Source: a virus
Direction: 5' to 3' (one strand)
IMG/VR virus record: IMGVR_UViG_3300032267_001142
Location: 122,106 to 186,105 of that record
Length of the DNA: 64,000 nucleotides
Shown: positions 4,730-19,588 of the stretch, in pieces
Numbering within the stretch: the first letter of the stretch is position 1
How the letters are laid out: each line of letters begins with the position of its first letter
The notes under the pieces: model-generated
Told to the model about the DNA's origin: nothing
What the model saw: only the letters and a program-made list of their open reading frames with translations
Database searches by the model: none
Program-made: the position numbers and the translations under genes

Positions 4730-4803
4730 GCGCGCATCGTATATGAGTATTACTCCTGATTGCCATTCAGGGAAAGCGGTTGCAAGTCCCGCTGCGCGCT
4801 CCA
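4730..4803 (+). tRNA. trnG: tRNA-Gly(GCC)
   Basis: GCGCGCA/TGCGCGC acceptor, CCTGA-TTGCCAT-TCAGG, U73-CCA. Confidence 0.85.
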
Positions 4804-4820
4804 AGTTTTTCAAAAACCTG

Positions 4821-4848
4821 TTGACCTTTTCAAAAAAGGCAGTAGAGT
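4821..4848 (+). promoter_or_regulatory. Sigma70-like promoter at the start of the tRNA cluster
   Basis: TTGACC-N16-TAGAGT. Confidence 0.55.
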
Positions 4849-4993
4849 GAGTGAAGTAAAGGGAAGCCGCCCTAAACGCAAACGGCGAAAACGACCATAG
4901 AGAGTCTAGCATTAAAATCGGCCAGCTAGCGCCCCTGTCGGATAGCTTGTAAAAAGCTTAAAGATGTTTGTTATTTGCAGTGGTAGTTATTAT

Positions 4994-5071
4994 GCGGTAT
5001 TCGCCTAGTTAGTTATGGCACCTGTCTTCCAAATAGGAATAACGTCGGAGCAAAGCCGACATACCGCACCA
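4994..5071 (+). tRNA. trnG: tRNA-Gly(TCC)
   Basis: Cloverleaf, loop CTTCCAA, T-loop AGCAAAG, CCA. Confidence 0.85.
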
Positions 5072-5080
5072 TTCTTTACT

Positions 5081-5174
5081 TCCAAAGTACACTAACTGGA
5101 AAGTGGCGAAGCTGTTAACTTCGTGCATCCCACCCCTGCGTGGTATCTAGGTCCGAATCCTAGCTTTGGAGCCA
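5081..5174 (+). tRNA. trnN: tRNA-Asn(GTT) with long variable arm
   Basis: TCCAAAG/CTTTGGA, loop CTGTTAA, ~23-nt variable region, G73-CCA. Confidence 0.8.
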
Positions 5175-5175
5175 C

Positions 5176-5742
5176 TTAACATTTGGAAGTAATAATACCA
5201 AGTTTTTTAGCTCTTTTGCGAATTCCTGTTGGGCTAATGTTTATTAATTCCGATATCGAATTCGGGCTGAGTTTTTGCACGACCATCATATCATACAGGT
5301 CTATTGACGACCAATCAAACTTCTCCCGAAGTTTGCACGCACAAGACCTCGAACAAACTTTGTAACCTACTGGTTTATCTGCGCCGCAGATAGGGCACGA
5401 ATTCATTTCTATCACTGTTTCCGGTCTATAGTTGACGAACGACTCATTAAACGCCCGAAAGGTTTCGGGAACATTTGCAACTCCGTTATGCACTTCTCGA
5501 TGACAGTTGGAACATAACAAAATACACTTTTTTAGTTCGGCACAAATCTTGCTCCAAGCTTTAGGTGACGACATAGTTTTACCAAACGAAAACTCTTTAA
5601 TAGATGGGTCTAAATGATGAAGTTCGAGCGCCGCGTTACATTTTTTGTAATTGCAGATTTGGCAGCATCCTCCCATAGATTCGATGATACGGATTTTGGT
5701 ATTTTTGCGCCACATTTTGACATGATTAGAATTTTTGCTCAT
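5176..5742 (-). CDS. HNH endonuclease
   Basis: CQIC...LELHHLDP...LLCSNCHREVH. Confidence 0.85.
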   Translation of the reverse strand: MSKNSNHVKMWRKNTKIRIIESMGGCCQICNYKKCNAALELHHLDPSIKEFSFGKTMSSPKAWSKICAELKKCILLCSNCHREVHNGVANVPETFRAFNESFVNYRPETVIEMNSCPICGADKPVGYKVCSRSCACKLREKFDWSSIDLYDMMVVQKLSPNSISELINISPTGIRKRAKKLGIITSKC

Positions 5743-5904
5743 ATATTAACAGATTATGTTAATTTACACCATTAGTGGTGTGATGTGAGGGTTATCTTGG
5801 AATTAGAGCCTATTTCTAGTAGCGACACTGCCAAAGCGTTGAACGTGGCCCGTCATAGTAACGGGATAAAGAAATGCGTTTCTCAACCGCTAGAATTCAA
5901 TTTC

Positions 5905-5980
5905 GGGGCATTAGTGAGAGAAGTTAGCACAGGAAGCTTGCACCTTCCAAGAGACGGCGCGATACCGTCATGCTCCACCA
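5905..5980 (+). tRNA. trnA: tRNA-Ala(TGC)
   Basis: G3:U70 pair, loop CTTGCAC, CCA. Confidence 0.9.
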
Positions 5981-5992
5981 TTAGTTGAACAT

Positions 5993-6068
5993 CGGAACGT
6001 AGCCTAGCAGTTCAGGCACCTGTTTTGGGAACAGGACGAGGCGGGGGCAGCACCTGCCGTTCCGACCA
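5993..6068 (+). tRNA. trnP: tRNA-Pro(TGG)
   Basis: CGGAACG/CGTTCCG, loop TTTGGGA, CCA. Confidence 0.9.
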
Positions 6069-6071
6069 TTT

Positions 6072-6158
6072 GGGTAGTTAGACTCGTAGAGTGCGAGGGC
6101 GGATTGTAAACCCGCCTCTGTAATGGACTGGTAGGTGCGACTCCTACATTGCCCACCA
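6072..6158 (+). tRNA. trnY: tRNA-Tyr(GTA)
   Basis: Loop TTGTAAA, long variable arm, CCA. Confidence 0.85.
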
Positions 6159-6164
6159 TTTTAT

Positions 6165-6239
6165 GTCCCATTCGTCCATAAGTTAAGACCGCAGCCTTTC
6201 AAGTTGCAGAACGCGGAGCGTTACCGCGATGGGATACCA
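6165..6239 (+). tRNA. trnE: tRNA-Glu(TTC)
   Basis: Loop CTTTCAA, T-loop AGCGTTA, CCA. Confidence 0.9.
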
Positions 6240-6267
6240 TTTATAAACGGTAGCTGATAACCTTGGC

Positions 6268-6386
6268 CGAGGTTTAGGCACGACCGAAACGAGAGAGACA
6301 CAGTAGCATATCTAGTAATGCAGGCCCCTAATTCGGGCCTTAACGTGGTGCAAATCCCGCGAGTTGGAACGTCCGTGAAATCCTCG
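6268..6386 (+). ncRNA. Unclassified structured RNA motif, copy A (tRNA-like insert)
   Basis: CGAGG/CCTCG and CACG/CGTG stems; 18-mer GGAACGTCCGTGAAATCC shared with 8821-8838. Confidence 0.5.
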
Positions 6387-6397
6387 ATAATTTTGAT

Positions 6398-6471
6398 ACC
6401 TCATTGGTGAATGAATATCACACAACCCTGTCACGGTTGAGTAACGGGTGTAAGTCCCGTATGGGGTGCCA
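6398..6471 (+). tRNA. trnD: tRNA-Asp(GTC)
   Basis: Loop CTGTCAC, G73-CCA. Confidence 0.9.
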
Positions 6472-6581
6472 TTTTCAATAAAACAGAGGCTATACTGTAT
6501 TAGCGACGAAATCGGAGCCGAAACATAGCGGAGGTTGCAAACTCCGTGGAATAACCCGTCGCTCATTGAAGAATTTTTAAT

Positions 6582-6658
6582 CGTAGTGAGGCTCGAACAG
6601 CATCGACACCCGCTTGATAGGCGGACCAAAGCAAGGGCAGCACTTGCCACTACGACCA
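6582..6658 (+). tRNA. trnI: tRNA-Ile(GAT)
   Basis: CGTAGTG/CACTACG, loop TTGATAG, CCA. Confidence 0.85.
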
Positions 6659-6732
6659 GCGGGATAGTGTAAGAGTAGCATATCAGTCTCATAAGCTGAA
6701 GACGCCGTTGCAATTTACGGCTCCTGCAACCA
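6658..6732 (+). tRNA. trnM: tRNA-Met(CAT), initiator-like acceptor; shares position 1 with the upstream CCA
   Basis: 1:72 mismatch, 3' end GCAACCA, loop CTCATAA. Confidence 0.8.
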
Positions 6733-6783
6733 TACAGTCCGTCGGCTATTCCTCTGCGCGAGCATGAACCGATGGTTAGTTTC

Positions 6784-6858
6784 GCTGACGTAGCCCAATG
6801 CAGAGGCATGAGGTCGAGAACTTCATTAGTGTAGGTGCGAGTCCTATCGTCAGCACCA
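6784..6858 (+). tRNA. trnL: tRNA-Leu(GAG), short variable loop, C33
   Basis: Loop TCGAGAA, 5-nt variable loop, CCA. Confidence 0.75.
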
Positions 6859-6870
6859 ATTTCAAATACT

Positions 6871-6945
6871 CCGCTCAGAGTGTGAAAGATAGCACGATAC
6901 TCTGTCACAGTATTAGAACGAGAGCGTTACTCGTTGGGCGGGCCA
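6871..6945 (+). tRNA. trnD: tRNA-Asp(GTC)
   Basis: Loop CTGTCAC, G73-CCA. Confidence 0.9.
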
Positions 6946-6989
6946 AAAATTAAATTGTCTAAATCCGGGTTTCTTGTGTAAACTATTGT

Positions 6990-7517
6990 ATGACAATCCA
7001 GATAGGACATCTCTACAATTCTCTAAAAGTTTTAGAGTTTTCTCACACAGATAAACTAGGCCACAAGATTTGGAAATGCGAGTGCTGCTGCGGCAAGCTG
7101 TGCCTTCAGCCCTCTCGATATCTAGGGAAAACAAAAAGTTGCGGATGTCAAAGGAGAAGCAAAAACATCAAAGGAGAAGGAGAGATATATGGTTCGTTAT
7201 TCTCTGGTATGAGATTCGCCGCCAAGCGGCGGCGCATAGTTTTCGATGTCTCTCCGAAATTTTTGTGGCAGCTTTTCCTAAAACAGGAAAGAAAATGCGC
7301 GCTTAGCGACCTACCATTAGATTTCGGCAGGGGTAAAAGAGGACTGTTCAGAACGGCCTCCCTAGATAGAATAGACTCCAGCAAGGGATACACGGAGGAC
7401 AACGTTCAATGGGTTCATCGCCAAGTAAACGTAATGAAGCATGAGCTTTCTTATCAGGAATTTCAGGATTTAGTAGAGAGGGTTTTTAATAAAGCCCGAA
7501 AGGATAAAAAACATTGA
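6990..7517 (+). CDS. HNH homing endonuclease-like protein
   Basis: WKCECCCG..TKSCGC N-terminus; SLDRIDSSKGYTEDNVQWVHRQVNVMK. Confidence 0.85.
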   Translation: MTIQIGHLYNSLKVLEFSHTDKLGHKIWKCECCCGKLCLQPSRYLGKTKSCGCQRRSKNIKGEGEIYGSLFSGMRFAAKRRRIVFDVSPKFLWQLFLKQERKCALSDLPLDFGRGKRGLFRTASLDRIDSSKGYTEDNVQWVHRQVNVMKHELSYQEFQDLVERVFNKARKDKKH

Positions 7518-7551
7518 CGTTCGCTGTAAAACGCGCTACTGTCTAAAACAT

Positions 7552-7627
7552 CGCTGTTTAGCAAATCAAGAGATTGCGACCCGCTGAAGACGGGATGAGG
7601 TCGGCGCGATACCGACAACAGCGGCCA
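7552..7627 (+). tRNA. trnF: tRNA-Phe(GAA), atypical C1-G72/G73
   Basis: CGCTGTT/AACAGCG, loop CTGAAGA, CCA. Confidence 0.75.
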
Positions 7628-7634
7628 TCTTAAA

Positions 7635-7805
7635 ATGAGAAAGTCTCACCTAGTCGAAAAATTGTTATCGCTCTCAATGAGCGAAGTTTTGAGTCCGAGA
7701 AATTCAAAATACGCAAAAGTAGGCGCATGGATAAGTAAACTCTCCAGCGAAGAAAAAGAAAAATTAAAGACTCTTGAGTCGAAAGACTTTAATCATCGAA
7801 TTTAA
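7635..7805 (+). CDS. Small hypothetical protein (56 aa)
   Basis: ATG..TAA ORF filling the gap between two tRNAs. Confidence 0.45.
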   Translation: MRKSHLVEKLLSLSMSEVLSPRNSKYAKVGAWISKLSSEEKEKLKTLESKDFNHRI

Positions 7806-7810
7806 GAAAT

Positions 7811-7884
7811 GTCTCATTAGCATAACAGTAATGCCTCTGCCTTCCAAGCAGAACATGTCGGGGCGGCACCGACATGGGACTCCA
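7811..7884 (+). tRNA. trnG: tRNA-Gly(TCC)
   Basis: Loop CTTCCAA, U73-CCA. Confidence 0.9.
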
Positions 7885-7893
7885 ATTTCAAAT

Positions 7894-7967
7894 GGGTTGC
7901 TAGCTTAAAAGTAAAGCCGTGGATTTTTACCCCACCTAACACGGAGCATTACCGTGGCGACTCTCCA
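7894..7967 (+). tRNA. trnK: tRNA-Lys(TTT)
   Basis: Loop TTTTTAC, CCA. Confidence 0.85.
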
Positions 7968-8015
7968 CTTCAAAGTTTTTCTGGAAACTTTTAATCCAGA
8001 CGTGTAATATACAGT

Positions 8016-8432
8016 ATGACTAAAATCTGTTATATGTGTAAGCTTCCGAAACCAGTCGAAAAGTTCGCCAAGAAGAAAGCGGCTAAAGACGGGTTGCAGA
8101 GTCGCTGCAACGAGTGTATGTCGAAAACGATGATACAAGTCTATAGGGATGACGTTTCAGCATGGAACGATAAAACTAAGTTGCAAAAAGGACGGAAAAG
8201 AGTTTGGGTTGACGAGCTTAAACAATCTGTTGGCTGTATAGTTTGTGGCGAAGAAAATCCTAGCTGTTTAGAGTTTCATCACGTAAGCGCCTCCAATAAA
8301 GAACACGACATATCACAAATGATAGTCAATAAAGCTTCCGACGAAAGGATTCGCGAAGAGATAGACAAGTGTTTGATTCTGTGTGCTAATTGCCACAGAA
8401 AAGTTCATAGAGGATACATCCTGATAGTATAA
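8016..8432 (+). CDS. HNH endonuclease
   Basis: CYMC..CNEC N-terminus; CIVC..LEFHH..LCANCHRKVH. Confidence 0.85.
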   Translation: MTKICYMCKLPKPVEKFAKKKAAKDGLQSRCNECMSKTMIQVYRDDVSAWNDKTKLQKGRKRVWVDELKQSVGCIVCGEENPSCLEFHHVSASNKEHDISQMIVNKASDERIREEIDKCLILCANCHRKVHRGYILIV

Positions 8433-8435
8433 ATC

Positions 8436-8509
8436 GGACTACTAGCATAAAAGTAATGCGTTCGGCCCTTACCCGAATAAATACGGAGCGTTACCGTGGT
8501 TGTCCTCCA
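8436..8509 (+). tRNA. trnK: tRNA-Lys(CTT), C33
   Basis: Loop CCCTTAC, CCA. Confidence 0.8.
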
Positions 8510-8520
8510 TTTAACAAATT

Positions 8521-8605
8521 CGCTCTGTGATGAAATCAGAATACATGCAGGCTTTAGATACCTGTGCCGAAAGGCGTGCAAGTGCAAATCTTGTCGGAGC
8601 GACCA
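8521..8605 (+). tRNA. trnL: tRNA-Leu(TAG)
   Basis: Loop TTTAGAT, variable arm GCCGAAAGGC, CCA. Confidence 0.85.
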
Positions 8606-8613
8606 TTTTATAT

Positions 8614-8687
8614 TGCCCCTTAGCATAGAAGCAATGCCGTGGACTTTGAACCCACATAAGTCGGAGCGTTACCGACAGGGGCGACCA
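8614..8687 (+). tRNA. trnQ: tRNA-Gln(TTG)
   Basis: Loop CTTTGAA, CCA. Confidence 0.9.
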
Positions 8688-8715
8688 ATTAAATAACCTA
8701 CAGAATATCGCCGCG

Positions 8716-8843
8716 CCCTCGAAAGCACGGCTGGTCTAACCAAAAGATGCGGCATCTGGCCGCGATGATAGATAGCGGGGTAAGCTCGATAGACGGCTGA
8801 ACATACGCGTTAAGTAGGCCGGAACGTCCGTGAAATCCGAGAG
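8716..8843 (+). ncRNA. Unclassified structured RNA motif, copy B
   Basis: CTCG/CGAG, CACGG/CCGTG and CTGGTC/GGCCGG stems; shared 18-mer. Confidence 0.5.
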
Positions 8844-8895
8844 TTTAATTTCATAAGGTTCTCTTCGTAAGTATCCTTTCAAAATACTTTCCGTG

Positions 8896-8969
8896 CGGTG
8901 CGTGAGTGTAAGTAACCTTCTCGCCTTGGAAGTGAGATATTGGGAGTGCGAATCTCCCCGCGCCGACCA
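8896..8969 (+). tRNA. trnP: tRNA-Pro(TGG)
   Basis: Loop CTTGGAA (A37), CCA. Confidence 0.85.
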
Positions 8970-9104
8970 GATTCGACGTAATGGACAGCCTACCCACCAA
9001 GGGGCGCGTTTGAATAGTCCTGAAAATTTATTGACGCCGCCACAAATCGGCATACACTTAGGTCATAAGGAAATCATGTGAGTTTCCTCGAACAAAGTAA
9101 AAAT

Positions 9105-9180
9105 GGCCGCTTAGCCCAACAGCAGAGGCGACGAACTCAAAATCCGTAAAGCGAGAGTGCGAATCTCTCAGCGGCTACCA
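9105..9180 (+). tRNA. trnL: tRNA-Leu(CAA), short variable loop
   Basis: Loop CTCAAAA, 5-nt variable loop, CCA. Confidence 0.8.
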
Positions 9181-9183
9181 TTT

Positions 9184-9388
9184 GCCCCTCGGAGGGATAA
9201 GTCCGAGACGAACCAACTAGACGCCGTAGTCACGTTACAATTAAGGACGTGATGGAGGCTATAAAGGTTTGATTACCAACAAAAAGATAGGGAGAATACG
9301 TCAAATATCTCAAGCCTAGTGTTGGAATAGTGCTGCGGAATCACCAGCAAGTTGAATGCATTGTTCGCGACGATGTTACTAGACCGAA
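9184..9388 (+). ncRNA. Putative structured ncRNA (~200 nt)
   Basis: Hairpins CTCGGA/TCCGAG, CACGT/ACGTG, AGGCT/AGCCT, TGCTG/CAGCA; no credible ORF. Confidence 0.4.
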
Positions 9389-9390
9389 AT

Positions 9391-9468
9391 GCCCCATGTA
9401 AGCACCTAGACCTCCCTTGTAACGAGGCATGACGATTGCGATATCGTATGGGGCTCCATTTTTTATGC
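9391..9468 (+). tRNA. trnT: tRNA-Thr(TGT)
   Basis: GCCCCAT/ATGGGGC, loop CTTGTAA, CCA. Confidence 0.75.
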
Positions 9469-9581
9469 AGCGGCGTGGAACATTGACACGCGGTATATCC
9501 TAACGGTGATGCCGGAATAGAAACGATATCGTTTTACGACGATATTCGAGCCAGCCTTAACTGGTCTGCGTAAAGAATTTT

Positions 9582-9656
9582 GGTTTGTTGGGAAACCGTC
9601 AATCCGCCCGCCTGCAAAGCGGGAGATGCCACGTTGGATTCGTGGACAAACCTCCA
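9582..9656 (+). tRNA. trnC: tRNA-Cys(GCA)
   Basis: Loop CTGCAAA, U73-CCA, T-loop TTGGATT. Confidence 0.85.
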
Positions 9657-9694
9657 TTATGAATACATAGCAAAAACAAAACTGCAAAGAAGTA

Positions 9695-9922: not shown

Positions 9923-9975
9923 AATGCGTTAGACTTAGTAAACAATTCCCCGAGGGCCGTAAAAAGCCCTCAACT

Positions 9976-10049
9976 GCTCGGCTAGCTTAATGATAAAGCA
10001 AGCCTCTCTAAAAGGTCGTATCTCGGTTTGAGTCCGAGGTCGAGCACCA
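9976..10049 (+). tRNA. Amber suppressor tRNA (anticodon CTA)
   Basis: GCTCGGC/GTCGAGC, GCCT-CTCTAAA-AGGT, CCA; anticodon 10008-10010. Confidence 0.75.
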
Positions 10050-10053
10050 ATTT

Positions 10054-10141
10054 GGGTTAATAGACGACTAAAGAGGTCGGCCAAGCTGTAACCTTGGTTG
10101 CTTAAATGCACATTTCGGCGCAATACCGGATTAGCCCACCA
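10054..10141 (+). tRNA. trnY: tRNA-Tyr(GTA)
   Basis: Loop CTGTAAC, long variable arm, CCA. Confidence 0.85.
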
Positions 10142-10146
10142 TACAT

Positions 10147-10221
10147 GGCCTATTAGTGTAAAAGTAAGCACGACTGATTCTCAATCAGTAAACCTCGGAG
10201 CGTTACCGAGATAGGCTACCA
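10147..10221 (+). tRNA. trnE: tRNA-Glu(CTC)
   Basis: Loop TTCTCAA, CCA. Confidence 0.9.
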
Positions 10222-10226: not shown

Positions 10227-10302
10227 GTTCCTATGGTGAAATCAGAAATCATAGAGGCTTGCGAAGCCCCTGTTCCAGATGCGAGTTCTGGTAGGAACAC
10301 CA
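10227..10302 (+). tRNA. trnR: tRNA-Arg(GCG)
   Basis: Loop TTGCGAA, CCA. Confidence 0.85.
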
Positions 10303-10307: not shown

Positions 10308-10399
10308 GGCTAGTTAAGTGGTCGAGTGGCCACCTTCAATTGCTAATTGAAAGGCACCCTTAAACAAGGTGTAGCGGGCGGGACGTTAGCTAGCCGCCA
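10308..10399 (+). tRNA. trnS: tRNA-Ser(GCT)
   Basis: Loop TTGCTAA, long variable arm, G73-CCA. Confidence 0.85.
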
Positions 10400-10666: not shown

Positions 10667-10742
10667 GTTCGCCTAGCTCAATAGATAGAGCACTACTTTG
10701 CGAAGGTAGAGGTTCCCGATGCAAGTTCGGGGGTGAACTCCA
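10667..10742 (+). tRNA. trnR: tRNA-Arg(GCG)
   Basis: Loop TTGCGAA, U73-CCA. Confidence 0.85.
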
Positions 10743-10748: not shown

Positions 10749-10822
10749 CGGAGGTTGATGAAACAGTATCATATTTGGCCTACACCCAAAATTCGCAAGG
10801 GCAGCACTTGCACTTCCGACCA
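10749..10822 (+). tRNA. trnV: tRNA-Val(TAC), C33
   Basis: Loop CCTACAC, CCA. Confidence 0.8.
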
Positions 10823-10875: not shown

Positions 10876-10950
10876 GCCGCCGTGGCAGAATAGATATGCG
10901 CCAGTCTCCTAAACTGGTTTATGAAAGTGCAACTCTTTCCGGCAGCACCA
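10876..10950 (+). tRNA. trnR: tRNA-Arg(CCT)
   Basis: Loop CTCCTAA, CCA. Confidence 0.85.
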
Positions 10951-11016: not shown

Positions 11017-11093
11017 CGAGTAGTAGTTTATCCTAGAAAAACAGCCCTTCACAAGAGGGCGAAGGTGAGGCATAGGAACTCCCCTCTCGACCA
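11017..11093 (+). pseudogene. Degenerate tRNA (anticodon ACA or CAC, ambiguous)
   Basis: GCCCT-TCACAAG-AGGGC and CCA present, but acceptor and T arm are mismatched. Confidence 0.45.
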
Positions 11094-11097: not shown

Positions 11098-11172
11098 GCC
11101 GCATAAACATAGTCAGCGATGTGCTAGTTTCGTAAACTAGATAGTAGGGTGCGTCTCCCTAATGTGGCTCCA
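11098..11172 (+). tRNA. trnT: tRNA-Thr(CGT)
   Basis: Loop TTCGTAA, CCA. Confidence 0.85.
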
Positions 11173-11283: not shown

Positions 11284-11358
11284 GTCCCATTAGTGAAACA
11301 GATATAACAATGCGTTTCGACCGCATAATTCCGAGTGCAAATCTTGGGTGGGACACCA
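11284..11358 (+). tRNA. trnR: tRNA-Arg(TCG)
   Basis: Loop TTTCGAC, CCA. Confidence 0.85.
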
Positions 11359-11495
11359 ATCGCTACGACCATTGCAACCAAACCCAAGTCTCACCGAGGG
11401 CGCAGCCAAGCAGGTATGGTGCAAATCTCCCTGTGCTGTGAGAGACTTGGGAAGGGTGCAAGTGCAACTCCCGCCTTGGCGTCCAATTTTTAGAT

Positions 11496-11570
11496 GGTTA
11501 CGTGAGTGTGATAGCCGCACTGAATTTTGTGAAAATTCCAGAATGGGAGCGAAACCCATACGTGACCCCA
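11496..11570 (+). tRNA. trnH: tRNA-His(GTG) with G-1:C73
   Basis: Loop TTGTGAA, 8-bp acceptor. Confidence 0.9.
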
Positions 11571-11635: not shown

Positions 11636-11710
11636 CAGGTGATGATGTAGCACTCAGCATTCGATTCTGTGAAAATCGCCGGATACGTGGAACTCGTATG
11701 CACCTGACCA
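11636..11710 (+). tRNA. trnH: tRNA-His(GTG), atypical (no G-1, A73)
   Basis: Loop CTGTGAA, T-loop TGGAACT, CCA. Confidence 0.7.
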
Positions 11711-12302: not shown

Positions 12303-12373
12303 GTCCTCGGTAATAGATACTTCTGGAGCTTCTAACTCTGAGAAACGCGGCGCGATACCGTGCGGGGACACCA
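12303..12373 (+). tRNA. trnR: tRNA-Arg(TCT), short D arm
   Basis: Loop CTTCTAA, CCA; promoter TTGACT..TATTCT upstream. Confidence 0.75.
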
Positions 12374-13537: not shown

Positions 13538-13629
13538 GGTTCTGTAATGTAAAGTAGCATCGCACGTCTTATAAACGTGGCGCACTTGATTGGTGCCGGG
13601 TCTCAGTGCAAGTCTGAGCAGAACTACCA
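13538..13629 (+). tRNA. trnI: tRNA-Ile(TAT) with long variable arm
   Basis: CACGT-CTTATAA-ACGTG, ~22-nt variable arm, CCA. Confidence 0.75.
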
Positions 13630-13632: not shown

Positions 13633-13708
13633 CGCTCCTTACTCCAATGCAGAGAGCGTGGTCTCAGAAACCGCGAAAGTGTCGTTGCAAGTACGACAGG
13701 AGCGACCA
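13633..13708 (+). tRNA. trnL: tRNA-Leu(CAG), short variable loop
   Basis: Loop CTCAGAA, CCA. Confidence 0.8.
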
Positions 13709-13718: not shown

Positions 13719-13800
13719 TCCTAGTAAGGAAACGAGTGTAACCGGCGGTCTGTTAAACCGTGAAATAACGAGCTTCGTGCGACTCGAAGACTAGGAGCCA
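13719..13800 (+). tRNA. trnN: tRNA-Asn(GTT), extended variable region
   Basis: Loop CTGTTAA, ~11-nt variable region, G73-CCA. Confidence 0.8.
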
Positions 13801-13947: not shown

Positions 13948-14031
13948 ACACCCTCTCCCAAGAAGGATTGGAACTCGTCTCCAAAACGAGAGTCATCAGA
14001 CTAAGCCGAGCGTTACGGCAAGGGTGTGCCA
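13948..14031 (+). tRNA. trnW: tRNA-Trp(CCA) with variable hairpin
   Basis: Loop CTCCAAA, AGTC-ATCA-GACT arm, G73-CCA. Confidence 0.8.
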
Positions 14032-14035: not shown

Positions 14036-14109
14036 GGGCTGTTCGACTAAAATTAAGTCACGAGTCTCTTAAACTCAGGAACACGGAGAATTACCGTGAC
14101 GGCTCACCA
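14036..14109 (+). tRNA. trnK: tRNA-Lys(CTT)
   Basis: Loop CTCTTAA, T-loop AGAATTA, CCA. Confidence 0.85.
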
Positions 14110-14184
14110 GCGGGATAGACAAGTAGTTAAGTCAGGGGTTTCATAAGCCTCCATGCATGGGTGCAAATCCCATTTCCGCAACCA
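14109..14184 (+). tRNA. trnM: tRNA-fMet(CAT)-like; shares position 1 with the upstream CCA
   Basis: 1:72 mismatch, GGGGT-TTCATAA-GCCTC, end CCGCAACCA. Confidence 0.8.
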
Positions 14185-14194
14185 TTGTAAATAT

Positions 14195-14269
14195 GGGCCA
14201 TTGATGAAATAGTATCATGCAATTCTGGCAGAATTGATTTTCGGGTGCGAATCCCGAATGTGTCCACCA
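14195..14269 (+). tRNA. trnA: tRNA-Ala(GGC), bulged acceptor
   Basis: G3:U70, loop CTGGCAG, CCA. Confidence 0.8.
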
Positions 14270-14271
14270 TT

Positions 14272-14363
14272 GGAAGCTAGGCGAATATAAGTTGGTCGCG
14301 CTAGTCTTGAAAACTAGTTCACTGTAACAGGTGAGGTCGGGGCAGTACCGACAGCTTCCGCCA
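14272..14363 (+). tRNA. trnS: tRNA-Ser(TGA)
   Basis: Loop CTTGAAA, long arm, G73-CCA. Confidence 0.9.
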
Positions 14364-14886
14364 TTTTGGATACTGAGTATCCACGGTGTATCAAAACTAA
14401 CTTACAGATTTCCTCGAACTCTTCTAATGTGGAGTCTGATTTTGCGCGATTTACCGCTTTTAGCGTCAAGCCGCAATTTGAAAGAGAATTATCTCCTCCT
14501 TTCGCAATAGGTTGAATATGGTCAAGCTCATAGGTTTTCGGCTCTAGTAGATTTATCGGTAGTCCCGTAAGATAGCAGATAGGCTGAGACAAGAGCTTGT
14601 CTTTAAGTTCTTGAGCAGAGAACAGAGAAGCTGCACGATTTCGTCCGCCCGCTAATCCGGCCTTAGTGCATCGCCGCCCCGCTATACATTGGAAATTATC
14701 CTTTTTGCGTTTCAAAATTCCGTTGAAATTCGCCCGATGCTTTCTCGTTCGTGCGAAGCTTCGTTTTTTACCTTCAGGATTCAAATAGTAAGCGACAGTA
14801 CTATAAGCGCAACCTAAAAATTTCGCTATGTTTTTATACCCCCATGTTGGGTTGGAGGTTTTACAATCAAGGATTTTTTGTTTCAT
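14314..14886 (-). CDS. HTH-HNH endonuclease (paralog of 12997-13491)
   Basis: MKQKILDCKTSNPTWGYKNIAK; ELDHIQPIAKGG..SNCGLTLKAVNRAKSD. Confidence 0.85.
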   Translation of the reverse strand: MKQKILDCKTSNPTWGYKNIAKFLGCAYSTVAYYLNPEGKKRSFARTRKHRANFNGILKRKKDNFQCIAGRRCTKAGLAGGRNRAASLFSAQELKDKLLSQPICYLTGLPINLLEPKTYELDHIQPIAKGGDNSLSNCGLTLKAVNRAKSDSTLEEFEEICKLVLIHRGYSVSKMAEAVGTAPTSPVTVN

Positions 14887-14938
14887 ACATGATTTTACAC
14901 GTCGCGTCACATTTTTTCTAGTATTTGTATCGCTGCTT

Positions 14939-15027
14939 AGCAGATTACCCGAATAAGATTCGGCCTCGCCTCGAAAGCGAAGGGCACCCCAAAAGGGTGT
15001 GGGGCGCGCTACCTCAATCTGCTGCCA
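14939..15027 (+). tRNA. trnS: tRNA-Ser(CGA)
   Basis: Loop CTCGAAA, long arm, G73-CCA. Confidence 0.85.
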
Positions 15028-15030
15028 TTT

Positions 15031-15121
15031 GGTAAGTAAATCATCAAAGTGATGACCTAAGCTGGAAACTTAGTGGCACCCTTAAAAAAGGTGTGGGATG
15101 CGAGTTCTCTGCTTACCGCCA
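15031..15121 (+). tRNA. trnS: tRNA-Ser(GGA)
   Basis: Loop CTGGAAA, long arm, G73-CCA. Confidence 0.85.
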
Positions 15122-15196
15122 CGCAGCTCAAAATGAGCTGCTTTTAGCCCTGTGGTGTAATAGAAACATATCTGGTTCTGACCCAGCAGACTCAAC

Positions 15197-15430
15197 GTGC
15201 AAGTCGTTGCGGGGCTTCCAATTATGCCTAGTATCAAAGAAAAGAAAGTCGCGTTCCTACTCGAAAGAGGCGCGGCGGTCGCCTTAGACCAGTTCAATAG
15301 GACTGTGTTGAAGCAAGGTGGCGCGTTTTGTCTCGTTGACGACTATGGCCGCGTCACTTGGTATACGAATAAGACTCTGGAAGAAATGCGAGTCATAAGA
15401 AACGATGCGAGAGTCGAGATTGAATTATGA
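15197..15430 (+). CDS. Hypothetical protein
   Basis: ORF coupled (ATGA) to the next gene. Confidence 0.5.
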   Translation: MQVVAGLPIMPSIKEKKVAFLLERGAAVALDQFNRTVLKQGGAFCLVDDYGRVTWYTNKTLEEMRVIRNDARVEIEL

Positions 15431-15684
15431 AAAGCATGCTCCGCAGTGTCATAAAGGCGAACAAGCAGATAGAAGAGGCTAGAAGCATAATTGCCAAGGT
15501 TCAAGCGAAATGCTCACACCCTGACGCGACGCTCGATAAAGTTTACAAAGCGGACACTGGCAACTGGTGCGAGCAGGACAACTCGTATTGGGCAGAACTG
15601 ACGTGTAACCGATGCGGCAAATTTTGGTACGCAGACAGCGTAAAGAATCCAGAAGACTACCGCAGGGGCACAGTAAAAGTTTGA
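15427..15684 (+). CDS. Hypothetical protein (zinc ribbon)
   Basis: CSH..CNRCGKFW. Confidence 0.6.
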   Translation: MKSMLRSVIKANKQIEEARSIIAKVQAKCSHPDATLDKVYKADTGNWCEQDNSYWAELTCNRCGKFWYADSVKNPEDYRRGTVKV

Positions 15685-15714
15685 CAGCTCAGAAAGTTTC
15701 GATATCATAAAAGC

Positions 15715-16131
15715 ATGAAACCAATCTCCCGTAAGTCCTTCTTTGCTATTTTTGTCGCCCCGCTTTTGGCTCCGTTTTTACCAAAAGCCGTTGCAAAAAT
15801 CGTTAATCCAACTAGCGAGCCAACCGCTTCAAAGGTTTTCCTTACAGCGACAGAGGTAACGACAAACAAGAGAATCGGAAGCGTGAGCTTTTACAGTAAG
15901 TATCTTGCTAACGGACGAACGGAAGTCGCCGATAGAGCGCTGGCTCTCTTAGTTAGGCGGGCCGTCGATAGTGGCGCGTCGCACTATGTCGTCACATGGT
16001 CAGATGCGAACGCTCAGCGGGCATATTTCCATGAAAAATTTAACATACCGCTGAAAAACCTAGACTCTATGTTAGGAAAGTCCGAGCACTGGCTGAGCCG
16101 AGCTGAATTCGAGACACAATATCCTCTTTGA
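15715..16131 (+). CDS. Hypothetical protein with Tat-like N-terminus
   Basis: ISRKSFFAIFVAPLLAP. Confidence 0.5.
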   Translation: MKPISRKSFFAIFVAPLLAPFLPKAVAKIVNPTSEPTASKVFLTATEVTTNKRIGSVSFYSKYLANGRTEVADRALALLVRRAVDSGASHYVVTWSDANAQRAYFHEKFNIPLKNLDSMLGKSEHWLSRAEFETQYPL

Positions 16132-16273
16132 TGCTCTTTATACCTTATTCCAACGATTTTTTACTTCAGTCTCGATGCCGCCTCGGCGGAGGATGTAAAT
16201 ATGGGAAAATAATCGAGTTGGATGCTCGTTTTGAAAACGAGATAGGAATTATAGTAATTCGATAACGAATTAT

Positions 16274-16350
16274 GTCCTGTGAGGGAGCAAGTTGAACCCC
16301 ACAATCTGCAAAATTGTTGTTGCACGGCGCGATACCGTGACAGGACTCCA
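16274..16350 (+). tRNA. trnC: tRNA-Cys(GCA)
   Basis: Loop CTGCAAA, U73-CCA. Confidence 0.85.
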
Positions 16351-16352
16351 AT

Positions 16353-16697
16353 ATGAAACCCGAAGCGCAAAGAAAAGCTATCATTAAGTTCTGTGGCTGG
16401 AAAGACATCTCCGATAGCTGCCGCTATCGTTTAATGACTTTAGCAGTGATTCGAGACGAGCGGATGTTTAACGTCCACGACCCTTTGACGGATTTGAACG
16501 CGATGCGCGAGGCGGAGAGGATGTTGTCAGTAAAGCAAGCGAAACTTTATGTCGAGCTTTTGGGTGAGATAGTTCTGGACAACGGGGGCTGTTACTTCAA
16601 TAAGAACAAATATATGGCATTCGTGGCTCTAAATTCCACGGCTGCGCAGCGCGCCGAAGCTTTTCTAAAAGCTCTTGGACTTTGGACAGAAGATTAA
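16353..16697 (+). CDS. Phage ABA-sandwich-like protein
   Basis: AIIKFCGW..DPLTDLNAMREAE..STAAQRAEAFL; similar to 27474-27839. Confidence 0.55.
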   Translation: MKPEAQRKAIIKFCGWKDISDSCRYRLMTLAVIRDERMFNVHDPLTDLNAMREAERMLSVKQAKLYVELLGEIVLDNGGCYFNKNKYMAFVALNSTAAQRAEAFLKALGLWTED

Positions 16698-16736
16698 AAG
16701 TGTTGACGTTTTAGCAAAAGAGCCTAGAATGTAACC

Positions 16737-17715
16737 ATGCGATTGAGACAGGAAACTCTCTCGAAAGCAACAAAAGGGGGCATGACCTCTTAGATAACGC
16801 GCCGCAAGGCGAAGAAAGGCTGAAAGCCCTACATTTTCAGCCGCCGTTTACGGTCACTTATGCAACCGTAGTTCCTCGGTTTACAATGCCAAACATTGTG
16901 GACTAGACTATCGAGGTTCCGGCGTCCCGAAAGGGGCGTTTCCAGACGTGAAACTCTGGTAAACGGGTTCAAACTTAAATAGTCGAGAACGAAGCGTAGT
17001 TGTTTATGTCGAGCCTAGCAAGCAAGACGCGAACAGCAGCCCAAACGGGAGTGGACTCGTGAGAGTTTATGACCGAGAAAGCCGTCGAAATCGCCGCTGG
17101 CGAAAGATATCATGTTGTGTTGTATTGGGTGGTCGAAAGGTCATCTAGCGACTGGACAGACGCAACATAATAGGGATAAGTATTTGGAACTTACAAGAAA
17201 AAGTTCTGTCCACGTTAGCGCGATAAGCAGATTAAGTCGCTGGCCTTCGGGCAACAGCGAGCGTTAAACCTCTCAAGGGAATAACGTTTGGCGTCAGAGT
17301 AAGATTGGTTGGCCTTTAGCGGGGTTAGCTGAGACGAAAAAACGCTGAGTAGCGCGACGGTTAATGGATATGCTACCATTCAAAAGCATCTGTGAGAAAT
17401 AGCGGTCGAAAGGTCGCTGGATAACAAGATAACACATACGTCTTGTAAAGGTTCTCGAATCGAAGCATAGTCTCAGCTTTGATAATTTGGTCAGCGGGCG
17501 AGCTATTTGAACGCAGTCGTTTGCAAAACTTCTATAGCAAGGTGAGATTCCTTGGCTGACCTCCATCTCATCAGTAGCGTATTACGCTAGTTTGGCTGCG
17601 GCCCATTGGGTCGCGAATTAAAGAGTTCGGGTTGCTCTGAGCTTAGTAGATTGGCAGGACGGAGGTAATAATATCCGCGCTTGTTAGTTGCTGGACGGGG
17701 AGTTAGCCCCTTGAG
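16737..17715 (+). ncRNA. Large ornate structured ncRNA (~980 nt; GOLLD/ROOL-class candidate)
   Basis: Own promoter TTGACG-N16-TAGAAT (16703-16730); no + strand ORF; dense GNRA/UUCG hairpins and long-range helices; abuts a tRNA. Confidence 0.7.
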
Positions 17716-17719
17716 AAAT

Positions 17720-17794
17720 GGGTCATTGGTGAAATAGAATCACGACGCACTCGCAATGCGTAGTCGAGGGTGCGACTCCCTCATGTATCCACCA
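17720..17794 (+). tRNA. trnA: tRNA-Ala(CGC), bulged acceptor
   Basis: G3:U70, loop CTCGCAA, CCA. Confidence 0.85.
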
Positions 17795-17899
17795 CAATTT
17801 TTACGTCGGAAACACAAAGAAAACATAAATGCCACTCAATATCTTAACTCTTTCGGTAGTGATGTCCGCGTTACTAATCTTAACTAGCCGCCGTATTCG

Positions 17900-18400
17900 A
17901 TGAAATTTTTCAAGAAAGTCAAAACCATTACCTCCAAAGAGGGCGAGCTGCACTTCGAGCGCTGGGCGATTTTCGAGTCAAAGTGGCTCTCGTGGTATAT
18001 CCACAGAATACACAAGGCAGACAGGGACCATTTACATTCCTATCCTTGGAATTTTCTGTCACTAATCTTGAAGGGCTGTTATCTCGAAGAGAACGCTTAC
18101 GATACAGCAGATGGAAGTTTCTGCACAGGCTTAAAGATAAAGAGCCCGTTCACAGTCACTTACTGTAACAAATCTAAATTTCATAAAATCAACACCATCA
18201 TCTCTGGTCCGGTTTACACGACGATGTTTGTGTGGGGCGACACCCAGAAGTGGTTTTATCGGGTAGGAAAGAAGAGAATTCCTTTTGAGGAATATCGCGA
18301 AATCAAAGCCGCAGCCAAAGAGGCGGGGCTTTCTATCGAGGAGTATATCTTCAAATATGAGATTGGGCTCTTGACTCCGTCGCAAAAACGAGTAGACTAG
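17900..18400 (+). CDS. Cupin-like hypothetical phage protein
   Basis: YIHRIHKADRDHLHSYPWNFLSLILKGCY. Confidence 0.55.
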   Translation: MKFFKKVKTITSKEGELHFERWAIFESKWLSWYIHRIHKADRDHLHSYPWNFLSLILKGCYLEENAYDTADGSFCTGLKIKSPFTVTYCNKSKFHKINTIISGPVYTTMFVWGDTQKWFYRVGKKRIPFEEYREIKAAAKEAGLSIEEYIFKYEIGLLTPSQKRVD

Positions 18401-18412
18401 TAAAAATCAAAC

Positions 18413-18799
18413 ATGAAATCATTCCTAAAACTTGCAATCATCGCCGTCGCGTCACTATCAATCGCTGGGTGCCAGCCAGAATCAGACGTAGCCGCCTATA
18501 ATGTTTCGCAGGCCGCGCATAATTTTGAAGTCAACAGACGAGTCGTGTTCTACAACGGCATCACAGGAGATTACATACTCACCATCGAGGGTCTTCTATC
18601 TGTGACGCCAGAAGATAAGCGCCTCTCGGTTATCGTAAAGACTGGGCCGAATCAGTATAAGAAGCACTATCTTGGTGTTTCTGATAACGTGACTTGGTTC
18701 TGCGAACAAATCGAATCCGTTCCAGCGTCGCCTTTTCATTATCGTGTCATCTTCCGTCCTACCACGATTATCCCAGATGTCGAAGTTAGGACGCGCTAA
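18413..18799 (+). CDS. Phage lipoprotein
   Basis: Lipobox IAGC; NFEVNRRVVFYNGITG..YKKHYLGVSDNVT. Confidence 0.75.
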   Translation: MKSFLKLAIIAVASLSIAGCQPESDVAAYNVSQAAHNFEVNRRVVFYNGITGDYILTIEGLLSVTPEDKRLSVIVKTGPNQYKKHYLGVSDNVTWFCEQIESVPASPFHYRVIFRPTTIIPDVEVRTR

Positions 18800-18817
18800 G
18801 AGAAGTTTAGTCAAAAT

Positions 18818-18901
18818 GTCGGTGTGAGTTAATGGCGAATAGCACAGCCTCTCCGCTTAAAACGGATACTTTTGCAGGTGCAAGTCCTGTCACCGATACC
18901 A
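18818..18901 (+). tRNA. trnL: tRNA-Leu(TAA), enlarged D arm, short variable loop
   Basis: Loop CTTAAAA, CCA. Confidence 0.7.
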
Positions 18902-18908
18902 AATTACA

Positions 18909-19133
18909 ATGAATGGAACATATCTTGACGCTCTCAATGTCACACTACACTGGTTTGGAGGCTCAATCAATCGAATGGATATTTTCGTGGCCTCTATCGA
19001 AGGACGCGTTATGAGAGATTTGGTTGATTCGGGACATTTGAGAAAAAGATTTTTTGGATGGGAAATCACTAGTAAAGGGCGCGAAGCTCTCGAAGAAGCT
19101 GACATCCATTGTTTCGAGGACACGCGTTCATAA
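18909..19133 (+). CDS. Hypothetical protein (winged-helix-like)
   Basis: LVDSGHL..WEITSKGREAL. Confidence 0.5.
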   Translation: MNGTYLDALNVTLHWFGGSINRMDIFVASIEGRVMRDLVDSGHLRKRFFGWEITSKGREALEEADIHCFEDTRS

Positions 19134-19139
19134 TTTTAT

Positions 19140-19213
19140 CGCTAATTCGTTCAAAAGCAGGACTCGCGTTTCATAAGCGCAGGACGCTGGAGCGTTACCA
19201 GCATTAGCGACCA
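19140..19213 (+). tRNA. tRNA with CAT anticodon (elongator Met or Ile2)
   Basis: Loop TTCATAA, paired 1-72, CCA. Confidence 0.8.
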
Positions 19214-19304
19214 TGTTAGTAAAACCCCGTCTCCCTCGGTTAAGGGGAGGTTGCCAGCGATGGCGATAATATCTGGGGCCGTAAAGTCGGAATCCGAACC
19301 TCCA

Positions 19305-19384
19305 CGCGGTCGGGCATAGGAGAAGTTTCTTCTGGTCTGTCTCATAAGCAGATAAATTACGTGCGATTCGTAACGCCGCAACCA
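19305..19384 (+). tRNA. trnM: tRNA-fMet(CAT)-like with irregular D arm
   Basis: C1:A72, loop CTCATAA, end GCCGCAACCA. Confidence 0.65.
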
Positions 19385-19431
19385 ACAGACTGTGCAAGCC
19401 TATACACAAAACTCAAATCGCGCAGTCATTT

Positions 19432-19505
19432 CGAGACATAGTTCAATAGTAGAATTTTTGATTGACATTCAAAAGACGAAGGAGCGTAACCTTCTGTTTC
19501 GACCA
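19432..19505 (+). tRNA. trnV: tRNA-Val(GAC)
   Basis: Loop TTGACAT, CCA. Confidence 0.85.
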
Positions 19506-19514
19506 AATTTTAAC

Positions 19515-19588
19515 GCCTCGTTAATTTAATAGTAAACCGCCTTTTTGGTAAAAAGGGTTCGCTGGAGCGTAACCAGCACGAGGCTCCA
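19515..19588 (+). tRNA. trnT: tRNA-Thr(GGT)
   Basis: Loop TTGGTAA, CCA. Confidence 0.85.

Follow-up and report, generated by a model that had tools for sequence, protein, structure and literature searches.

What holds together the elbow of tRNAs that lack the T54-T55-C56 (TTC) motif, and why would a phage carry a whole array of them? The window, by which we mean the whole 64,000-nucleotide stretch analysed, comes from a 186-kb uncultured phage and holds 54 tRNA genes plus a single degenerate copy (Table 1), close to the roughly 53 of the preliminary description. Genes were called with our own cloverleaf parser and manual curation; the parser returned no match in 160 kb of shuffled sequence. 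The suspicion that standard scanners under-call such genes proved justified, with ARAGORN reporting 24 of the 54 and Rfam 16 at gathering score (24 by E-value). The array serves all 20 amino acids and includes an amber suppressor, and simple wobble decoding reaches every sense codon except Pro CCY. CCA is encoded in 54/54 genes, U33 and purine 37 are retained, and stem pairing is about 99% (T-stem pairs 198/200, acceptor pairs 276/280). Discriminators are typical in 42 of 50 tRNAs and atypical in 8, all three Ala tRNAs have G3.U70, and about six genes are malformed.

Table 1. Features of the window, with the elbow and other particulars of each tRNA gene
Feature	Positions	Strand	Particulars
tRNA gene array	4730-19588	+	no TTC T-loop; HNH-type ORFs and structured RNAs interspersed
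Gly(GCC)	4730-4803	+	A18.G55, G19-C56, U54.A58
Gly(TCC)	4994-5071	+	A18.G55, A54.A58; A73 atypical
Asn(GTT)	5081-5174	+	G18.C55, G19-C56; exception, not UUC; variable arm long
Ala(TGC)	5905-5980	+	A18.G55, C54.A58, G3.U70
Pro(TGG)	5993-6068	+	A18.G55, G54.G58
Tyr(GTA)	6072-6158	+	A18.G55, U54.A58; 4-base linker before D-stem
Glu(TTC)	6165-6239	+	A18.G55, A54.U58
Asp(GTC)	6398-6471	+	A18.G55, swapped A19-U56, U54.A58
Ile(GAT)	6582-6658	+	A18.G55, G54.G58
Met(CAT)	6658-6732	+	G55, 8-base T-loop; 1-72 mismatch initiator-like
Leu(GAG)	6784-6858	+	G55, position 18 ambiguous; short variable loop
Asp(GTC)	6871-6945	+	A18.G55, A54.U58
Phe(GAA)	7552-7627	+	A18.G55, C54.A58
Gly(TCC)	7811-7884	+	A18.G55, G54.G58
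Lys(TTT)	7894-7967	+	A18.G55, A54.U58
Lys(CTT)	8436-8509	+	A18.G55, A54.U58
Leu(TAG)	8521-8605	+	A18.G55, U54.A58
Gln(TTG)	8614-8687	+	A18.G55, A54.U58
Pro(TGG)	8896-8969	+	A18.G55, U54.A58
Leu(CAA)	9105-9180	+	A18.G55, U54.A58; short variable loop
Thr(TGT)-like	9391-9458	+	no D-arm; G55 in 6-base T-loop
Cys(GCA)	9582-9656	+	G18.U55, U19.G56 wobble; exception, not UUC
Sup(CTA)	9976-10049	+	G18.U55, A19-U56; exception, not UUC; TruB consensus still fitted
Tyr(GTA)	10054-10141	+	A18.G55, C54.A58
Glu(CTC)	10147-10221	+	A18.G55, A54.U58
Arg(GCG)	10227-10302	+	A18.G55, U54.A58
Ser(GCT)	10308-10399	+	A18.G55, G54.G58
Arg(GCG)	10667-10742	+	A18.G55, U54.A58
Val(TAC)	10749-10822	+	A18.G55, G54.G58
Arg(CCT)	10876-10950	+	A18.G55, U54.A58
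Degenerate tRNA-like copy (Val CAC?)	11017-11093	+	start approximate; outside the 54
Thr(CGT)	11098-11172	+	A18.G55, U54.U58
Arg(TCG)	11284-11358	+	A18.G55, U54.A58
His(GTG)	11497-11570	+	A18.G55, A54.A58; G-1 and C73 present
His(GTG)	11636-11710	+	A18.G55, swapped C19-G56; without G-1/C73
Arg(TCT)	12303-12373	+	G55, C54.A58; D-stem shortened
Ile(TAT)	13538-13629	+	A18.G55, U54.A58; long variable arm
Leu(CAG)	13633-13708	+	G55, position 18 ambiguous; short variable loop
Asn(GTT)	13719-13800	+	A18.G55, U54.A58
Trp(CCA)	13948-14031	+	A18.G55, A54.U58; long variable arm
Lys(CTT)	14036-14109	+	A18.G55, swapped U19-A56, A54.U58
Met(CAT), initiator-like	14109-14184	+	A18.G55, U54.A58
Ala(GGC)	14195-14269	+	A18.G55, G3.U70; acceptor stem bulged
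Ser(TGA)	14272-14363	+	A18.G55, G54.G58; T-loop the same as in Anabaena operon tRNA-Ile(GAU)
Ser(CGA)	14939-15027	+	A18.G55, C54.C58
Ser(GGA)	15031-15121	+	A18.G55; 8-bp acceptor, 4-bp T-stem
Gln(CTG)	15146-15220	+	A18.G55, U54.A58
Cys(GCA)	16274-16350	+	A18.G55, C54.A58
GOLLD RNA 3' domain	17110-17479	+	Rfam RF02032; within tRNA array
Cys(GCA)	17489-17565	+	A18.G55, swapped U19-A56
Ala(CGC)	17720-17794	+	A18.G55, G3.U70; acceptor stem bulged
Leu(TAA)	18818-18901	+	G55; long linker before D-stem
Met/Ile2(CAT)	19140-19213	+	A18.G55, A54.U58
Met(CAT), initiator-like	19305-19384	+	G55, D-arm aberrant
Val(GAC)	19432-19505	+	A18.G55, A54.U58
Thr(GGT)	19515-19588	+	A18.G55, A54.U58
RNA ligase	19627-20262	+	PF09414; directly 3' of tRNA array
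RNase P RNA	26918-27207	+	bacterial type A descent, without CR-II/CR-III elbow-reading module
tmRNA	32004-32417	+	with GG and TTC

Position 55 is G in 51 of the 54 genes, T in two and C in one, and nearly all the G55 tRNAs bear A18, as had been described. The reported absence of TTC (0/54) is true of the array only: the phage tmRNA, an internal control, retains GG and TTC, and one canonical tRNA(CAT) of the same phage, outside 4730-19588, also keeps TTC. G18 is present in all three pyrimidine-55 genes, Asn 5081 and Sup 9976, as noted earlier, and Cys 9582 too. Position 56 is C in 48 genes and T, G or A in two each, and 19-56 is re-paired in Watson-Crick form in four to five of the six non-C56 (G55/U55) genes: A-T in Asp 6398 and Sup 9976, C-G in His 11636, and T-A in Lys 14036 and Cys 17489. 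The preliminary description had four of these right, overlooked Cys 17489, and read Cys 9582 as C-G; we rejected that reading because only one register accommodates both a D-loop of 7 bases and pairing of C15 with G48, and it gives G18.U55 with a U19.G56 wobble. All the alternatives claimed for 54-58 were found in the 52 seven-base T-loops (T-A 26, A-T 11, G-G 6, C-A 5, A-A 2), with T-T and C-C once each. Position 60 tracks 54, T54 occurring with T60 27 times and non-T54 with A60 in 24 of 25. By permutation within the window, D-loop and T-loop match in 51/53 cases against a mean of 40.8 (p = 2e-5), and covariation is seen for 19/56 (p = 2.5e-4) and 18/55 (p = 0.02) in 24 seven-base D-loops and for 54/58 (p = 2e-4). 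A18 pairs up with G55 and G18 with pyrimidine 55, 19-56 stays base-paired whatever its letters, and 54-58 is free to vary.

The 18/55 rule also holds in other phages, where 432 unambiguous tRNAs with seven-base D-loops divide into 291 G18/U55, 130 A18/G55, 7 G18/C55 and 4 mismatched. In the pooled phages (about 2,000 non-redundant tRNAs), 76 of 88 non-C56 tRNAs have the matching 18-19 doublet, against 24 expected; the 18/55 and 19/56 covariation on which the earlier reading had been staked is seen here as in the window. G55-dominated sets occur in the related phages G003, G008 and G104 and in the unrelated G005 (35/35), each with differing 19-56 swaps, and single G55 tRNAs are scattered through 11 of 43 otherwise canonical arrays. 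A new observation is that even the residual pyrimidine-55 tRNAs of G55-dominated arrays avoid UUC, which is present in 7/25 of them versus 1214/1350 in canonical arrays, and in 0/3 in the window array. The Thr(TGT)-like gene has an 85% identical copy in G003, and Leu(TAA) 18818 has homologues in G003 and L009. Our literature search found no published description of the A18/G55 elbow or of the small RNase P RNA discussed below.

Canonical bacterial and phage elongator tRNAs (RF00005) share with the array the cloverleaf, the 7+5 bp acceptor/T stack, U33, purines 37 and 57, G53-C61, a paired 19-56, CCA and identity elements. The array tRNAs differ in having A18.G55 for G18.Psi55, no T-loop UUC, and A.U, G.G, C.A or A.A besides U.A at 54-58, and they cannot be TruB substrates. 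A newly recognised match is the elbow of the trn-operon tRNA-Ile(GAU) of Anabaena PCC 7120 (A18-G19, G54-G55-C56, G58), which was detected and aminoacylated in vivo, although it migrates aberrantly and may be misacylated (PMC8421152); that report makes no mention of the elbow. It occurs in 1 of 20 parsed tRNAs of that operon versus 51 of 54 in the phage array. Long arrays such as the Anabaena L-array (PMC8421152) likewise hold a large accessory set, with HNH genes nearby as well as a large ornate RNA, but ours lies on a phage. In metazoan mitochondria, and in Pyrobaculum, whose RNase P RNA has lost most of its specificity domain, change of the tRNA elbow likewise goes with loss of the RNase P elbow-reading T-loops (PMC4810234, PMC4919922). 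However, mitochondrial elbows are lost or degenerate whereas the array's contact is rebuilt under strict covariation, and the phage-borne RNA, unlike that of Pyrobaculum, is bacterial type A-derived.

This phage-encoded RNase P RNA without an elbow-reading domain is a further new element. Its catalytic domain is complete (P1-P6, P15-P19, CR-I, IV, V and the L15 GGU), and a sigma70-like promoter of its own lies at about 26881-26908. The small RNA is enriched in G55-dominated phages, with 6/9 lineages against 4/44 of the remaining tRNA-array records, each at least 50 kb long (Fisher p = 6e-4), counts that are not phylogenetically independent; several positives are one terminase family, and p-values therefore overstate independence. 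A real link with G55 conversion is quite possible, though slightly less likely than not; the canonical tRNAs of most phages that carry the small RNA, and its non-detection in G003 and G005, tell against it.

Covariation, intact stems, kept identity elements and a published charged example support the proposal of a functional alternative elbow under selection, and the array very probably consists of working tRNAs. In laboratory selections from suppressor tRNAs with randomised D/T-loops, Zagryadskaya, Doyon and Steinberg (2003-2004) reportedly obtained functional clones whose T-loops were rich in purines and whose 54-58 pairs were of other kinds. Pseudogene decay, or a mutation bias acting on the whole genome, might account for the degenerate copy and the few genes that are malformed. 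It is hardly credible, however, given that changes are paired, stems are 99% paired, the genes are conserved across phages and the tmRNA in the same genome is canonical, and covariation has already largely refuted it. Non-proteogenic tRNAs such as staphylococcal tRNA-Gly have altered D- and T-loops, and some array genes have odd arms or discriminators, so that decoys, or charged aminoacyl donors kept off the ribosome, could be imagined; we find this improbable, since a near-complete codon set, isoacceptors, initiators, U33 and purine 37 fit decoding and 19-56 pairing is maintained.

Among explanations that accept working tRNAs, A18.G55 might be stable without TruB, TrmA or TrmFO and favoured because infected cells lack these enzymes, or have them saturated or switched off. 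G55 cannot be pseudouridylated and lies outside the TruB consensus (PMC7912444). U54 is missing too in 25/54 genes, and no TruB gene was found in this phage or four others. However, tRNAs with unmodified U55 are generally viable, TruB is present in 41/41 Verrucomicrobiota, one candidate host phylum, and UUC avoidance by residual pyrimidine-55 tRNAs is left unexplained, including that of Sup 9976, which still matches the TruB consensus. We consider this account unlikely and, of the two ideas raised in the preliminary description, favour evasion of UUC-reading host factors over independence from modification. Less likely again is a neutral second solution, in which both elbows work and a phage RNase P without an elbow clamp allows drift, helped by T-arm gene conversion. 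It would suit the finding that G55-dominated phages are enriched in the small RNase P RNA, the T-loop words recurring across many genes, the lone G55 tRNAs of canonical arrays, and the mitochondrial tRNAs that changed likewise once their partners lost elbow readers (PMC4810234). Drift should leave mixtures, though, and TTC is entirely gone; array genes are only 46-70% alike over their stems and therefore not recent copies; most small-RNase-P phages remain canonical (just 30 of 633 neighbouring tRNAs are G55); and the complete phages G003 and G005 converted though the small RNA was not detected in them.

Overall we lean, by a little, towards a self-supplied pool of second-elbow tRNAs that evades UUC readers, while nuclease evasion as the main cause of the elbow change seems to us evenly balanced. 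The array would be a complete pool in which A18.G55 replaces G18.Psi55 and preserves both the L shape and a flat face at 19-56, and which host synthetases would charge and ribosomes use. The phage RNase P RNA probably helps to mature its precursors (U at -1 in 43/54, all with CCA), and may be what permits conversion of the whole set. With UUC gone from every T-loop, the pool would be invisible to UUC-reading host factors, chiefly Cash-type T-loop-cutting nucleases, and translation could continue on it once host tRNAs are cut. Cash, a CRISPR-associated Schlafen nuclease, cleaves 5' of U55 in UUC, and a single change at U54 or U55 abolishes cleavage (PMC13462974); its target is exactly the motif missing from the array, of which it is a putative opponent and not a relative. 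Because UUC is absent from all T-loops, the array is predicted to resist UUC-cutting host nucleases. Cash also cuts UC-motif anticodon loops, several of which retain UUC in the array, and this, like the TTC kept outside it, counts against evasion. Other phages similarly supply tRNAs with altered nuclease sites as a counter-defence, in their case against anticodon nucleases (PMC10264068; PMC11555353), but those changes affect anticodon loops of single isotypes whereas the array removes a universal site set-wide; in one of these reports, T-loop, D-loop and elbow go unmentioned. The phage also encodes three RNA ligases and one polynucleotide kinase, a sign of tRNA-cutting pressure on it.

The tRNA array comprises 54 genes and one degenerate copy, detected with a stem-based cloverleaf parser that is blind to the T-loop, with irregular genes curated by hand; on shuffled sequence the same parser returned zero tRNA genes. 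The phage is complete (186 kb) and has a terminase; the array packs 54 co-oriented genes into 14.9 kb and so qualifies as an L-array, a term for clusters of at least 20 tRNA genes in one orientation on a mobile element. CCA is encoded in every gene, sigma70-like promoters are distributed along the array, and all 20 amino acids plus an amber suppressor are served, simple wobble leaving just the Pro codons CCU and CCC unread. The genes fold as cloverleaves, with 276/280 acceptor and 198/200 T-stem positions paired in the 40 regular genes, and they retain U33 and purine 37. The discriminator fits the amino acid in 42 of 50, and the encoded CCA is joined by G3.U70 in all three Ala tRNAs and G-1 with C73 in one His tRNA.

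The elbow is where these genes depart from elongator tRNAs (RF00005), which are defined by G18 and U55 of the T-Psi-C motif. As the preliminary description had claimed, none carries T54-T55-C56; of the 54, 51 have G55. Positions 19 and 56 are still paired across the elbow face, mostly as G-C, with A-U, C-G and U-A swaps and one U.G. The U54.A58 reverse Hoogsteen pair of RF00005 is found in just 26 of 52 genes, the rest including A.U, G.G, C.A and A.A. The exceptions listed in that description stand, with one correction, Cys 9582 (G18.U55 and U19.G56), and one omission, Cys 17489 (U19-A56). Because numbering is otherwise circular, the 18/55 and 19/56 tests were restricted to genes whose D-loop has seven bases (24 in all), in which position fixes 18 and 19. 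The covariation anticipated for three column pairs is significant at 19/56 (p 2.5e-4), 18/55 (p 0.02) and 54/58 (p 2e-4, as for 54/60), and a rule-based permutation across 53 genes gives p 2e-5. The suspicion that standard scanners under-call such genes was also justified: ARAGORN reports 24 of the 54, and Rfam 16 at its cut-off or 24 by E-value (RF00005), a blind spot that costs tRNA finders more than half of the array genes.

Recent duplication does not account for the common elbow, since the genes are only 46-70% alike in pairwise comparison. Nor is the change a genome-wide bias, as the phage’s tmRNA retains GG and TTC and one tRNA(CAT) outside the window is canonical. Covariation, stems and identity elements thus bear out the proposal of a selected alternative elbow: judged from sequence, it is real and used across a complete phage tRNA set, in genes that are a variant of tRNA and no new class. 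A18.G55 would take the place of G18.Psi55 with geometry unchanged, a reading suggested by the covariation and by the T-loop motifs of other RNAs, which accept G at the second position. ‘Elbow-missing’ tRNAs have reportedly been found in Lactobacillus casei; our literature search, which covered journals outside subscription, returned no description of A18/G55 tRNAs or of a phage RNase P RNA.

The array genes are very probably working tRNAs. The strongest outside evidence for working A18/G55 tRNAs comes from the Anabaena trn operon, whose first tRNA, tRNA-Ile(GAU), has A18-G19, G54-G55-C56 and G58, and has the same T-loop as Ser 14272 of the window. This tRNA was reported to be present and charged with an amino acid in vivo; its gel mobility was aberrant, and misacylation was not excluded. 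Its elbow is not discussed in that study (PMC8421152), and may explain the mobility.

A pattern for one alternative T-arm matches at least 117 viral contigs, which range from a single G55 gene to entire sets. In a sample seeded on canonical T-arms, 17 of 598 tRNAs carry G55, all 17 having AG in the D-loop, and they are spread over 11 of 43 arrays. In the pooled non-redundant set of 2,067 tRNAs, seven-base D-loops fall into two states, G18 with U55 or C55 (298) and A18 with G55 (130), with 4 mismatched; tRNAs without C56 have the matching 18-19 doublet in 76 of 88 cases (expected 24). U54.A58 is found in 94% of U55 tRNAs versus 48% of those with G55; the A54 seed inflates this figure. Three terminase relatives (G003, G008 and G104; 31-48% identity) have G55-dominated arrays, each with its own 19-56 swaps, as does an unrelated phage, G005 (35/35 G55); the relative G007 is almost devoid of tRNAs. 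A nearest-neighbour comparison of single versus repeated origin gave identities of 50-84% from pools of unequal size. Among cultured phages G55 is seen solely as single genes, such as the tRNA-Phe of CcrColossus.

The window also encodes an RNase P RNA with P1, P2, P3, CR-I, P4, P5 followed by CAA, P15, P16, P17/P6, P18, CR-IV, P19, CR-V and a GGU loop pairing with CCA, and so with the catalytic domain of the bacterial type A RNA (RF00010: P1-P5, P15, CR-I, CR-IV, CR-V, L15 GGU). The RF00010 specificity domain, with its interdigitated CR-II/CR-III T-loops, is lacking; a single long hairpin without a CR-II or CR-III motif lies between P6 and P5', and CR-I and CR-V are 198 bases apart, versus 219-359 in 25 bacterial RNAs. 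It is through CR-II and CR-III that RNase P RNA stacks against the elbow of tRNA (PMC4919922; PMC4810234). A descriptor for the small RNA has a single match in the genome and none in 1.86 Mb of shuffled sequence; Rfam (RF00010 giving no score) and blastn did not detect it. In viral contigs, 65 of 82 pattern matches are further small RNase P RNAs with compensated P4, and the window RNA scores 61 bits against a family model that has this copy in its training set; it belongs to a large phage family missed by Rfam. A pattern scan of metagenomes yielded 36 chance or canonical matches and one true copy.

In records of at least 50 kb the small RNase P RNA accompanies 6 of 9 G55-dominated lineages versus 4 of 44 others (p 6e-4, the lineages not being phylogenetically independent). 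We reject the reading that it occurs specifically with rewired tRNAs, because most carriers have canonical tRNAs: G55 is found in just 30 of 633 tRNAs adjoining small RNase P RNAs. As no copy was found in the complete G55 phages G003 and G005 either, this RNA is neither necessary nor sufficient for elbow conversion. The link is partial, and at most the RNA eased the conversion. U at position -1, common in RNase P substrates, is found in 43 of the 54 array genes.

Two purposes had been proposed for the elbow, independence from host modification and evasion of host factors that read it. The discriminating result is the avoidance of UUC by tRNAs that kept a pyrimidine at 55: TTC is found in 7 of 25 of these in G55-dominated arrays versus 1214 of 1350 in canonical arrays (counts that are phylogenetically non-independent), and in none of the three in the window. 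One of these three, Sup 9976, lacks TTC yet matches the TruB consensus of PMC7912444. TruB is present in 41/41 genomes of one candidate host phylum. The CRISPR-associated Schlafen nuclease Cash, of type III CRISPR systems, cleaves most tRNAs 5' of U55 in UUC, and a single change at U54 or U55 stops cleavage. This recognition site, with its required U54 and U55, has been lost from all T-loops of the array. Against evasion weighs that Cash also cuts some anticodon loops. Together with the three RNA ligases and one polynucleotide kinase of the phage, UUC avoidance, the TruB match and the specificity of Cash favor evasion over the less favored independence from modification, and we give about even chances that the array is a nuclease-resistant tRNA pool.

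A broader and more tentative possibility, which we consider rather unlikely, is a semi-orthogonal phage tRNA system, in which a complete second-elbow set immune to UUC-reading nucleases is matured by a phage ribozyme shorn of its elbow-reading domain. If true, this would be a counter-defence of natural origin, directed against the broad destruction of tRNAs in type III CRISPR immunity, and an example of tRNA/RNase P co-evolution outside mitochondria.

Teaching presents G18 and U55 as universal in tRNA, and a complete natural set lacking them would show that the tRNA core can be built in a second way that works. Phage tRNA counter-defence would take in the elbow as well as anticodon loops. The question whether tRNAs of phages are cleaved, left open in the Cash paper, can now be tested directly, with a clear prediction. 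The array tRNAs, including the amber suppressor, would be ready-made scaffolds that bypass TruB and UUC-reading nucleases.

Coordinates of features in the window and in other sequence stretches
Feature	Sequence	Position	Remarks
tRNA array	window	4730-19588	
Amber suppressor tRNA	window	9976-10049	coexists with TAG as stop
Initiator-like tRNA-Met	window	6658, 14109	first base is final A of upstream CCA (one-base overlap), hence A1.A72 mismatch
Asn, Ile(TAT), Trp	window	5081, 13538, 13719, 13948	class switching, long variable arms
Three Leu	window	6784, 9105, 13633	class switching, short variable loops
Two Ala	window	14195, 17720	identical acceptor-stem bulge
Ser	window	15031	8/4 architecture
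Thr	window	9391	no D-arm; conserved in G003
Leu(TAA)	window	18818	long linker
Two Tyr	window	6072, 10054	four-base linker
GOLLD RNA, inside array	window	16737-17479	Rfam match 17110-17479; promoter at 16703
ORF-free structured stretches between tRNA genes	window	6280-6390, 6510-6570, 8690-8850, 9185-9390, 9465-9575, 11385-11490	two have a common 20-base segment with GUGA tetraloop; some bear the same TGC-type T-loop words; no match in Rfam
RNA repair genes	window; L123	19627-20262; 12967-15987	
RNase P RNA without elbow-reading domain	window	26918-27207	six-pair P4
tmRNA	window	32004-32417	unusual 26-residue tag
HNH protein	window	58055-58696	
Canonical tRNA cluster of G003	L216	8553-13630	five TTC tRNAs, separate from its G55 array
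CcrColossus (Caulobacter phage) tRNA-Phe(GAA)	L126	18849	A18/G55 amid canonical tRNAs; absent from record’s tRNA annotation
Anabaena tRNA-Ile(GAU)	NC_003273; L615	5836-5908 minus	

The virus record is complete at 186,105 bases with direct terminal repeats, the window being its bases 122106-186105, and encodes a terminase, portal, DNA polymerase III alpha, ribonucleotide reductase and thymidylate synthase. Searches with the terminase region and the ribonucleotide reductase found no cultured relative; in MAGs (Flavobacteriaceae, Cellvibrionales and Verrucomicrobiales), terminase relatives sit solely on contigs that are short or have probably been mis-binned. The genetic code is code 11, and amber reassignment (table 15) was rejected, as TAG terminates 41 of 181 ORFs and the gain from TAG read-through is not above that from TGA read-through. 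Shine-Dalgarno use is low (12/130). TruB, RnpA and HARP genes are lacking in this phage and in G003, G005, G008 and G104. Pfam matches at 25000-48000 of the window include a PARP with a WGR domain, a phiEco32-type COOH-NH2 ligase, glutamine amidotransferase, gamma-glutamyl cyclotransferase, ATP-grasp, radical SAM, DNA methylase and 2H phosphoesterase. The HNH protein has weak, sub-cut-off similarity to the HNH of IscB/Cas9, and its relatives adjoin many tRNA arrays.
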